A stretch of 64,000 nt of DNA from Deltaproteobacteria bacterium (GTDB taxonomy: Bacteria > Desulfobacterota > Binatia > Binatales > Binataceae). Positions 51,896 to 54,061 of this stretch are shown here, piece after piece. The notes below the pieces were generated by a model. The model was not told the origin of the DNA. It did not search any database and saw only the letters and a list, made by a program, of their open reading frames with translations. How positions within the stretch are numbered: position 1 is the first letter of the stretch; every line of letters starts with the position of its first letter. The stretch spans positions 2,377 to 66,376 of the forward strand of contig JAKBMB010000025.1 of the NCBI GenBank assembly GCA_021831785.1, written 5' to 3'. The position numbers and the translations under genes are program-made.

Positions 51896-54061
51896 TTATA
51901 AAATAGTTTGTTGCGTGCGGAAGTCGCGCTCGTGCTCTTTGGCCGTCACCCGCAGCAGGACCGACTCCTGAGCGCTAAGGATGCGATGGCCTAGGATAAG
52001 CTGCGCAAGGGCGAGCGGATCGCTGTGGCGGCGCCGGCGCGCCTTCTCCTCATAACTGCCGAGCTTTTCGGGTGCCACGTAATGAAGCTCGCCGCGCCGG
52101 CCCTCGATGTGAGCCCAGATGTTCGCCTCGATGAGCTTGGCTTCCTCGGCGCTGATGTTGCCGTCAATCTCGATCACGTCAGAGCGCCTGCGGTCTTCGT
52201 CCACCACGTCGGGAAAGAAACGGACCGAATTGAAGTTGCTCGTCTCGCGGTCGAGCTCAAAGCGCGCCAGCGTGTGGCGCAACAAGATGCGCACGCTTAG
52301 GCGATCCATATCGTCGCGGGAGCGGTCGCCGCGGAAGAAAGAGACCACCAGGTCGGCGTAGCGGCGCTGTGGCTGTATGTAGGCTTCGGCATCCACCCGG
52401 CGCGCCTCAAGCTCGGCCAGCACTTGCTCGCGCGTGTAGCCGCGCTTGGCGATGTCGCGCTGCAGTTTCCATTCGATCCGTAGCGCAGGCTCGGGGTCAA
52501 GCCAGACTTTGAGGTCGAATGCGTGGCGAATCGCGGGAACCAGAAACGGATGCAGCCCCTGGAGAATCACGACCTCTCGCGGCTCGACGGTTTCAGGCCC
52601 GCTGATGGTTCCGTCGCGATGGTCGTAGATGGGTTTGTTGATCGGGTTGCCGCCCTTGAGCGCGAAGACTTGTTCCTCCATCAAGGCGAAGTTATTGGCT
52701 CGCGGATTTAGCGCAGTGAACCCGACCAAGCCGCGCTGCCGGCGATCGAGCGAATGGTAGTCGTCAAGGCAGATGCTGGTGATTCGGTCCGCGCCGAACA
52801 GTTCGAAGAAGGCCGAAGTGAGCGTGCTCTTGCCGCTGCCGCTGTCGCCGCCGATGCCGACGAAGATTGGCCGGCGCAAGGTCTTGGAGGCCGGAGCCGA
52901 ACGAGGGCTCGGTTTTGCTCGCTCCCGCGCGACTTTGGCCTCCACGTCGTCCAGCAGCTTTTCGAACGCTTCAGCGAATAACCGCACGCCCTGGCGTTCA
53001 AGCTCCTGGGCAACCTCTTCCATGTCGATTCCGGCTGCCGCCAGCGCGCCGAGGTGGCGCTCGGCCTGCGCCGCGCCTGGAATGAGCGTTTCACCGGTTA
53101 TGCGGCCGTGATTGAGCACGGCGGTTAACGTTTGCAGCGGCATGGTGGTCACGGTCTGGGCGCCGATCAGTTCCTCGACGTACATGACGTCGCGGTAAGC
53201 GGGGTTCTTCGTGCTGGTCGAGGCCCAAAGCAACCGCTGGGGGCGCACCCGAAGCTGGCTCAGCCGCTGCGCGGTTTCGGCGCCCATGAATTCACGCCAA
53301 ATAGCATAAGCAGCGCGGGCGTTGGCGATGGCGGCCTTGCCCTTAAGCTCGGCCAGGGCCGCTCCCGCGCCGTCCTGCGCGGCGCCGACCCTTTCGTCGA
53401 GGAGCCGGTCAACCATGGTATCGATTCGACTCACAAAGAAGCTGGCCACCGACGCTATACGGTCCAGCGCCAACCCGCGTTCGTGAGCCCGCGCGATTCC
53501 GTTTGCCCACGCCTCGAGCACCTGGCGGTAGCGCCCCAGCCCAAAGATGAGCGTGACGTTGACGCTGATCCCCTCGCCGAGCAGCTCCGTGATTGCCTTG
53601 AGGCCGGCTTGAGTCCCCGGCACCTTGATCAGCAGGTTGTCACGCGCCACCGCCGCGTGCAGGCGCCGCGCCTCGGCAACCGTCGCGGCGGGGTCGTAGG
53701 CAAGCTCGGGCGATACCTCTAGACTGACAAAGCCGTCCGCACCCTTGGTCTGCGCGTAAACCGGCGCCAAGAGATCGGCGACGGCTCGCACGTCGGTGAT
53801 GGCCAACTGTTCGTAGAGCGCCTTGGGCGTCAACTCCTCCTGCCCGTCCGGTGCCAGCCGAGCGATTTGCTCTTGATAAGATTCGCCCGCCGTCAGCGCC
53901 TTCTGGAAAATTGCCGGATTCGTAGTTAAGCCGGTTACGCCGCTTTCCCGCACGAGCCTGCCGAGCGTGCCGTTTTGAATCAGCTCGCGGCTCAGTTCGT
54001 CGCACCAGGGACTTTGTCCGAGCGCCCGCAAGCGCCTAAGCGAATTTCCGGCTTTCCCCAT
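51896..54061 (-). CDS. Transaldolase-phosphoribulokinase fusion protein (721 aa)
   Basis: N-terminal transaldolase ([39 protein letters not shown]) continuous with PRK ([54 protein letters not shown]); GGAGG RBS before ATG 54061. Confidence 0.9.

Follow-up and report, generated by a model that had tools for sequence, protein, structure and literature searches.

Why would a bacterium join transaldolase (Tal), an enzyme left out of the textbook Calvin cycle, to phosphoribulokinase (PRK) and keep the joint gene beside RuBisCO? The question is raised by a stretch of 64,000 nucleotides (hereafter the window) from contig JAKBMB010000025.1 of a Deltaproteobacteria bacterium assigned to the Binataceae, in which one open reading frame (ORF) encodes both enzymes and precedes the RuBisCO genes cbbL and cbbS. 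Gene fusion is strong evidence, from sequence alone, that two enzymes work in one process, and this fusion ties transaldolase directly to PRK and RuBisCO; a variant Calvin cycle is thereby suggested, not proven. Our best reading, held with moderate confidence, is that ribulose 1,5-bisphosphate (RuBP) would be regenerated by way of transaldolase, a reading that takes together a bifunctional fusion, a mobile cassette of red-type RuBisCO genes and a dedicated transaldolase route.

The fused gene and its two domains

The ORF listing gives a single ORF at 51896..54163 (-). From the ATG at 54061, which lies 8 nt downstream of a GGGAGGG ribosome-binding site and specifies a start methionine common to eight fused homologues in an alignment, translation yields 721 residues without a stop. 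A preliminary description of this DNA had proposed one uninterrupted ORF of 721 codons, with a full transaldolase carrying IKVPGT, TTNP and SFFVSR ahead of a linker; the listing, the translation and the homologues bear this out, and every named motif is found in the translation. Pfam places TAL_FSA (PF00923) at residues 19–371 (277 bits, cut-off 27; profile positions 2–283 of 285) and PRK (PF00485) at residues 400–574 (157 bits, cut-off 22). NCBIfam agrees, with the long 'mycobacterial' type of transaldolase (NF002881) at residues 6–380 (472 bits vs a cut-off of 367) and phosphoribulokinase (NF005655) at residues 393–702 (333 bits vs 236). Uridine kinase models stayed below their cut-offs on the PRK half (96 vs 180 and 89 vs 220 bits). 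Like the known Tal/Pgi fusions (NF007080), the protein has a long-type Tal at the N-terminus of a two-enzyme fusion. Unlike them, its partner is PRK rather than phosphoglucose isomerase (PGI), and its Tal falls in a separate clade. The Tal/Pgi model scored 462 bits, under its cut-off of 712, with profile positions 3–373 of 949 matched, and neither the Pfam nor the NCBIfam scan found a PGI domain.

Between the conserved Leu369 and Pro398, nine fused proteins carry linkers of 27–44 residues with unrelated sequences, as expected of a true inter-domain linker between conserved domains. Near the start of the PRK half, no in-frame ATG or GTG was found, and the lone in-frame TTG lacks a ribosome-binding site. 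Positions 51500–54300 were compared with assembled contigs that came from four runs in three studies. Two contigs, either of which may be the source of the DNA, showed no differences (X1 over 51500–54300, X4 over 51640–54300); a contig from another study (X9) covered 51500–54294 with 70 substitutions and no gaps, and a further piece (X11) bridged 52373–53106 with 15 substitutions and no gaps. The junction, singled out for confirmation in the preliminary description, thus shows zero indels in contigs from three studies. Unfused neighbouring tal and prk genes do occur in Dormiibacter, so that a single-base error could imitate a fusion, but an assembly or sequencing error joining two genes is for practical purposes ruled out here by the variable linkers, by the gapless contigs, by the same single frame with differing linkers in five other species genomes and by nine fused clusters of database proteins from several sources. 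We are close to certain that the fusion is a real gene whose product, read from its sequence, would be bifunctional.

The preliminary description had also named an inactive domain as grounds for doubt; in sequence alignments, the catalytic motifs are invariant in both halves. The Tal half aligned over its full length with the solved transaldolases 3r5e (8e-87) and 7bbw. D21, N48, E115, K146 (the Schiff-base residue), T170, S207 and R212 are invariant in 71/71 aligned Tal rows, indicating that catalysis is under selection; we take the roles of these residues to be those of their counterparts in E. coli TalB. The PRK half, 329 residues long, aligned over its first 200 residues with 6hzk and over residues 4–304 with 9qko. 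As in cyanobacterial and plant-type PRKs (6hzk, 6h7g) and the 'cyanobacteria specific PRK' 9qko, its P-loop, LDDYH...DR and KxQRD..RG motifs align, and the P-loop and sugar-phosphate motifs are invariant in the fused set. Unlike classical PRK, it has Ser in place of the P-loop Cys, its C-terminal half aligns to 9qko and 9qkn only, and it is fused to Tal. A literature search on this 'cyanobacteria specific PRK' turned up no relevant paper.

Distribution of the fusion and history of its cassette

The preliminary description knew of no characterised Tal-PRK fusion and suggested a search for the domain architecture. Among the best 120 proteins listed from a search of 5.8 billion, nine bear both Pfam domains (P0002–P0010; 711–733 aa, 58–100% identity), and these form nine clusters at 90% identity. 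A HMMER search of 1.84 billion representatives at 50% identity returned one protein matching both halves among the best 150 (P0008, query residues 7–707). Database sources label the fused protein simply 'transaldolase'. We found no description of a transaldolase-PRK fusion in full-text literature, a search that did not extend to supplementary tables, which may list the gene.

Among species-representative genomes, a scan confirmed 51 loci, in nine of which both halves were matched. By frame reading, five of these carry one open frame: L038 and L039, from metagenome-assembled genomes (MAGs) labelled Deltaproteobacteria and Proteobacteria; L040, which is Ca. Eremiobacter antarcticus; L041; and L042, a Vulcanimicrobiota MAG. 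Three have separate tal and prk genes in different frames whose stop and start overlap as ATGA or TGATG (L043, and Ca. Dormiibacter spiritus and Ca. Dormiibacter inghamiae, L045 and L068). Judged from these frames, the overlapping pair is a natural fusion precursor, in which a one-base change would join the genes. In a Dormibacterota MAG (L044:7662-8006), a short tal remnant lies between cbbR and prk; tal was apparently deleted there, and misassembly is also possible. Occurrences by lineage thus comprise named genomes of Eremiobacterota and Dormibacterota, fused or overlapping, together with a Binatia relative from metagenomes of mine drainage and sediment. The Eremiobacterota and Dormibacterota carriers belong to lineages discussed as atmospheric chemosynthesisers.

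Within its own phylum, sampled at 401 genomes, the window genome alone gave a full-length match, and a PRK-half match at E <= 1e-20 was absent from all 13 sampled genomes of its class. The fusion was present in 3/301 genomes of the phylum sample of Ca. Eremiobacter. A metagenome census of Tal linked to the CBB (Calvin–Benson–Bassham) cycle, with 80 loci kept of at least 596 stretches, returned ordinary Tal at 43–51% identity and is uninformative on the frequency of fused or adjacent forms. Transketolase-transaldolase fusions of about 990–1000 aa also came up (P0032 and P0102; an ESM Atlas cluster of 308 members), mostly in Pseudomonadota/Burkholderiales; they are a further case in which two enzymes are fused, here from the non-oxidative pentose phosphate branch.

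To describe the cassette around the fusion, we compared the window proteins with the 51 loci by tblastn. Divergently upstream, 40/51 have a CbbR homologue, and cbbL follows PRK in 45/51, usually with cbbS and cbbX. The window resembles the Dormibacterota and Eremiobacterota cassettes in gene order, in CbbL (77–86% identical) and PRK (60–73% identical), in the divergent cbbR and in a common intergenic block. Unlike most of them, which have prk alone (42/51), it adds an N-terminal Tal and a downstream tkt. Behind cbbX, tkt was seen only in the window, L038 and L039 among the loci compared. In L043 two neighbouring transketolase-like ORFs, which share 37% and 29% identity with the N-terminal and the C-terminal part of the window Tkt, stand between cbbR and tal (L043:1680-3124); judged from this arrangement, tkt joined the cassette there by a second, independent route. 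Excerpts of PMC9758169 name the RuBisCO of the Eremiobacterota/Dormibacterota cassette type IE; the window has a red-type CbbL with CbbS, CbbX and a divergent cbbR, the IE label itself coming from those excerpts.

In Tal trees (quick and LG+G4), one clade (SH-aLRT 100) takes in the 15 CBB-linked rows, both fused and adjacent, and leaves outside it the 56 other Tal rows, including the genome's own Tal-Pgi. The ten tal-linked PRKs group in the PRK tree (support 82), with the six fused ones grouped within them (support 84), and the six fused loci also group in the CbbL tree (support 92), where the window CbbL sits among Eremiobacterota and Dormibacterota loci. A concatenate of PRK and CbbL (23 rows, 802 columns) recovered the fused clade with support 94 in a quick tree and with UFBoot 98 / SH-aLRT 98 under LG+G4. 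The Tal tree has the adjacent forms as neighbours of the Eremiobacterota fusions (support 89), and a single fused clade is not rejected there (p-AU 0.11). Forcing the PRK+CbbL data to join Eremiobacterota with the adjacent forms is disfavoured (p-AU 0.024), a grouping chosen after the Tal tree had been seen. One fusion event would fit all the data; a second fusion or a fission is also possible.

The genes on either side vary from genome to genome, as they would around a mobile unit. The window's TyrRS is 68–73% identical to Candidatus Binataceae proteins (8/8 organism-naming rows), and an excerpted Binatota survey (10.1101/2020.09.14.296780) reports PRK with RuBisCO in three genomes only. Given this relationship and the scarcity of the two enzymes in Binatota, the cassette was most likely acquired by horizontal transfer. 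GC content is flat (0.59–0.66 across 38–64 kb), with no compositional sign of recent transfer. We propose that a dedicated tal was placed ahead of prk in one branch of the cassette, that the overlapping pair would then have fused once, and that the fused cassette may have moved between Eremiobacterota and the Binatia-related lineage. Solo prk, overlapping tal/prk and fused gene make a natural series for the assembly of a pathway variant and its spread by gene transfer.

Routes to RuBP

How might the fused transaldolase serve the cycle? In the proposed mechanism, the bifunctional Tal-PRK gene would head a red-type cassette that is horizontally mobile, with cbbR divergent from prk-cbbL-cbbS-cbbX. 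Under CbbR control, a CBB-dedicated Tal would be made 1:1 with the sole PRK, and in the window lineage a second transketolase (Tkt) would be produced too. Fructose 6-phosphate (F6P) and erythrose 4-phosphate would be converted by Tal to sedoheptulose 7-phosphate (S7P) and glyceraldehyde 3-phosphate, after which Tkt would rebuild the pentose-phosphate pool for RuBP. F6P could be supplied by a fructose 1,6-bisphosphate (FBP) aldolase/phosphatase, or by a class I aldolase with GlpX. The fusion would fix co-expression and stoichiometry, possibly also co-regulation. Substrate channelling is most likely not its rationale, because Tkt, Rpi and Rpe stand between Tal and PRK in the pathway. We infer both enzyme activities, regulation by CbbR, and how much flux passes through Tal and in which direction; the prediction is that RuBP is regenerated by Tal and Tkt with little or no sedoheptulose 1,7-bisphosphate (SBP).

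The gene content of the window genome (3.68 Mb, 34 contigs, 96% complete) speaks for a dedicated role. Its only PRK (PF00485) match is the fusion, so PRK is made joined to Tal, in line with the 1:1 production proposed in the preliminary description; RuBisCO and ribulose-phosphate epimerase (RPE) are likewise encoded once each. Three Tal-family genes are present: the fusion, a short Fsa/TalC type and a Tal-Pgi (C17:9288-12155), which has a second Tkt gene immediately behind it (the pair spans C17:7060-12155). The fusion Tal is 47% identical to the Tal-Pgi, and the operon Tkt 51% identical to that second Tkt, so that the genome has a housekeeping pair and, in the operon, additional tal and tkt copies, which fits a dedicated role in RuBP regeneration. 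That Tal serves RuBP regeneration is, in our view, quite probable. That the Tal route replaces the SBP branch is a more tentative proposition, to which we give slightly less than an even chance.

A cycle of this kind has precedents. PMC8927339, in the part consulted, describes an S7P-forming Tal variant with two turns of FBP aldolase and fructose-1,6-bisphosphatase (FBPase) and one of Tal, without SBP. The window genome's gene content appears compatible with that variant, and the canonical GlpX route is also possible. Thermodesulfobium, for which excerpts of PMC13374853 report transaldolase as proposed in place of SBP phosphatase (SBPase) in RuBP regeneration, likewise encodes RuBisCO, PRK and transaldolase. 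According to the same excerpts it has a form III RuBisCO and is reported to lack an SBPase gene, unlike the window genome with its red-type form I RuBisCO and CbbX, its GlpX and its Tal fused to PRK. The excerpts also describe oligotrophic, trace-gas-oxidising Ktedonobacteria whose form I RuBisCO cluster, like that of the window, includes cbbR and prk, and for which Tal is likewise invoked in RuBP regeneration. The inference there rests on missing SBPase and GlpX, with no tal listed in the rbc cluster in those excerpts, unlike the window, where Tal is fused and GlpX is present. The transaldolase-variant cycle is already known, then; the Tal-PRK fusion appears new, is rare yet conserved, and has a visible evolutionary precursor.

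The strongest competitor is a canonical cycle in which SBP is made by the class I aldolase, GlpX serves as an F/SBPase and Tal is a useful but dispensable helper, with Tal and Tkt buffering sugar-phosphate pools or priming the cycle from stored hexose (F6P). We consider it unlikely, though several observations weigh for it and against Tal-dependent regeneration. The search of the rest of the genome for glpX, fbp and fba that the preliminary description had called for turned up GlpX (solved relatives include 5a5l and 3roj), a DhnA-type class I FBP aldolase (NF006704, 511 bits), which might make SBP, and the FBP aldolase/phosphatase. Some GlpX enzymes are bifunctional F/SBPases, and GlpX is encoded in 24/24 cassette-bearing genomes, whether tal is linked or not. 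In 42 of the 51 loci prk stands alone, with nothing Tal-like between cbbR and prk; these cassettes presumably support the cycle with no tal in the operon, Tal-Pgi being encoded elsewhere in the genome, so that a linked tal is not required by the cassette. The fusion itself is rare, at a single protein among the best 150 listed and 3/385 genomes in the class of Ca. Eremiobacter. Finally, tkt may have a promoter of its own and so be transcribed apart from cbbLSX: the spacer between cbbX and tkt holds a sigma-70-like site, the lone promoter-like match in 46000–55400, where shuffled sequences average 1.5, and a similar site is retained in L038 despite the poorly conserved gap. Two published observations, each from part of its source, point the same way: with Tal and both phosphatases, all three cycle variants can run and robustness is gained (PMC8927339), and transaldolase came out with a poor rank as a cycle-associated enzyme when Calvin-cycle genomes were surveyed (PMC7895386).

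What speaks against the canonical cycle is the placing of genes. With the window genome's own proteins as tblastn queries, no GlpX, FBP aldolase/phosphatase or class I aldolase gene lies inside the cassette at any of the 51 loci; the lone GlpX match near a cassette (L062) is about 6 kb upstream of cbbR and outside it. A further Tal is encoded outside the cassette in 24/24 cassette-bearing genomes, including all ten tal-linked ones, where it is mostly a long Tal-Pgi-like frame. That a second Tal has been joined to PRK and retained across phyla speaks for a role that carries flux and is specific to the cycle. The preliminary description had held that an SBPase and aldolase coregulated by CbbR elsewhere in the genome would undo its reading. 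Candidate genes for both activities are present; GlpX, the class I aldolase and the FBP aldolase/phosphatase have unrelated neighbours, and no LysR-type regulator was found among the flanking ORFs scanned. Its statement that the cluster has no FBP/SBP aldolase or bisphosphatase gene also stood, as none occurs between 42.8 and 58.9 kb of the window. Since GlpX, the class I aldolase and the FBP aldolase/phosphatase are encoded elsewhere, this absence does not mean that the SBP route is bypassed. Of the view that RuBP regeneration runs through Tal and Tkt, the dedicated tal and tkt copies are upheld and the bypass is not.

The 24 cassette-bearing genomes comprise ten that are tal-linked and 14 that are not (G405 and G407 are included), and relatives among them are not independent samples. 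Class II FBP aldolase (FBA) was found in 0/10 tal-linked genomes vs 5/14 others, and FBP aldolase/phosphatase in 3/10, exactly the window's clade, vs 1/14. PF00274 aldolases were matched in 2/24; control genomes gave no match, but hits in G410 and G423 indicate a working search. GlpX copy number (one in six fused genomes, two in most Dormibacterota) tracks phylogeny and was not used as evidence.

A more radical form of Tal-dependent regeneration turns on cysteines. Where 6hzk has its P-loop Cys (GDSGCGKST), the window PRK has Ser and 49/50 family PRK rows have Ser or Thr, the P-loop motif not being found in the remaining one. The second Cys of redox-regulated PRK (CLDDYH) is the sole member of the regulatory pair that the window PRK keeps. 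With the P-loop Cys replaced, the classical N-terminal disulfide switch of the thioredoxin/CP12 type is predicted to be absent. In the Tal half, Cys20, beside the catalytic Asp21, occurs in 15/15 CBB-linked Tal rows vs 0/56 other rows, 49 of which have Leu. The 721-aa protein contains two cysteines only, C20 and, in the PRK active-site motif, C431; the nine fused proteins keep both without exception. Cys20 may therefore be a thiol switch, as a prediction from conservation. It is conceivable, and in our judgement rather doubtful, that Tal-PRK is the core of an obligately SBP-free Calvin cycle whose CBB-specific transaldolase bears its own thiol switch, with Cys20, possibly paired with Cys431, replacing the redox control lost with the P-loop Cys. 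If so, one covalent unit would gate both the regeneration and the synthesis of RuBP in chemolithoautotrophs.

The same cysteines could instead mean that the Tal domain is chiefly a regulatory or scaffold module for PRK, with catalysis minor, acting as a sugar-phosphate sensor or as a Cys20 thiol switch that stands in for CP12/thioredoxin control. The position and conservation of Cys20, the two-cysteine composition and the lost P-loop Cys would all suit such a module, but the catalytic Tal residues are all invariant, Cys20 is also found where tal and prk are separate genes, and the ESM Atlas model of the fusion (mean pLDDT 0.80, pTM 0.56) shows no confident packing of one domain on the other; its scores fit two folded domains whose mutual orientation is predicted without confidence. 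We regard this explanation as improbable. The compact Tal-PRK and Tkt module may interest engineers of an SBPase-free Calvin cycle.

Operon layout, neighbouring genes and energy metabolism

The features of the locus are collected in Table 1. The preliminary description had the fusion heading an operon of cbbL-cbbS-cbbX and then tkt behind a CbbR promoter. The gene order is as described; co-transcription of tkt is qualified by the 362-bp gap with its sigma-70-like site.

Table 1. Positions of the fusion domains, cassette genes and control elements in the window, with the tal-prk overlap sites of three other loci.
Feature	Position	Strand	Basis or remark
Transaldolase domain, residues 1–385	52907..54061	-	profiles and alignment to solved transaldolases
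Inter-domain linker, about residues 383–397	52871..52915	-	Pro/Arg/Ser-rich; length and sequence vary among homologues
Phosphoribulokinase domain, residues 398–721 and stop codon	51896..52870	-	profiles and alignment to solved PRKs
Intergenic control region	54062..54210	.	conserved block AATTGTATTTGACTGCATGA at 54164–54183 (minus strand); GGGAGGG before ATG 54061
cbbR-like LysR regulator	54199..55155	+	Pfam HTH_1 and LysR_substrate; divergent; likely start ATG 54211
cbbL, red-type form I RuBisCO large subunit	50401..51858	-	profiles; 37 bp after the fusion gene
cbbS, RuBisCO small subunit	49957..50385	-	Pfam RuBisCO_small, 130 bits
cbbX, red-type RuBisCO activase	49050..49967	-	TIGR02880, 496 bits vs 459; 11 bp overlap with cbbS
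Sigma-70-like site TTGACC-16-AATAGT	48753..48780	-	inside the cbbX-tkt gap; weak lead
tkt, second transketolase copy	46642..48687	-	TIGR00232, 842 bits; 362 bp past cbbX
tal-prk overlap site, L045	L045:3821-3880		frame reading
tal-prk overlap site, L068	L068:11116-11180		frame reading
tal-prk overlap site, L043	L043:4257-4330		frame reading

The name cbbR rests on context, because the CbbR model NF045990 scored 188 bits on the LysR gene, below its cut-off of 450. Beside cbbR, an alignment of nine intergenic regions showed the 20-nt block in the fused loci and, in part, in the adjacent and solo loci, suggesting a putative binding site for the regulator. The best solved relatives of CbbL are the red-type enzymes 25hn, 4f0h, 1bwv and 1bxn, and it is 85% identical to the CbbL of the Ca. 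Eremiobacter antarcticus locus. The cbbX-tkt spacer (48688–49049) has a similar length in L038 and L039, its sequence being poorly kept. No clear terminator was seen in this spacer; the terminator scan as a whole gave 9 sites vs 10.4 expected from shuffles and is uninformative. An Rfam scan of 46000–55400 returned zero matches at E up to 0.1. The cluster is flanked by a YhdP-like gene and metH.

Class II FBA, class I FBPase and phosphofructokinase (PFK; PF00365) were not found in the 96%-complete genome, and sugar catabolism here probably bypasses classical glycolysis, having no PFK. An uptake-type [NiFe] hydrogenase with large, small and b-type cytochrome subunits is encoded at C26:161028-164669 and is, from its genes, a likely energy source for the Calvin cycle in this organism.

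Elsewhere in the window, three large helicase/nuclease genes at 5593–15161 (-), RecD-like, UvrD/RecB-like and of the exonuclease V gamma family, have an ordinary RecBCD-type look. At 23254–26319 (-) lies the alpha subunit of a formate dehydrogenase-N with a twin-arginine-type leader and an in-frame TGA at 25732–25734 in the motif ARV-U-HGP. The part after the TGA matches TIGR01553 with 1246 bits, and the gene probably encodes a selenocysteine enzyme that ordinary ORF calling splits in two.

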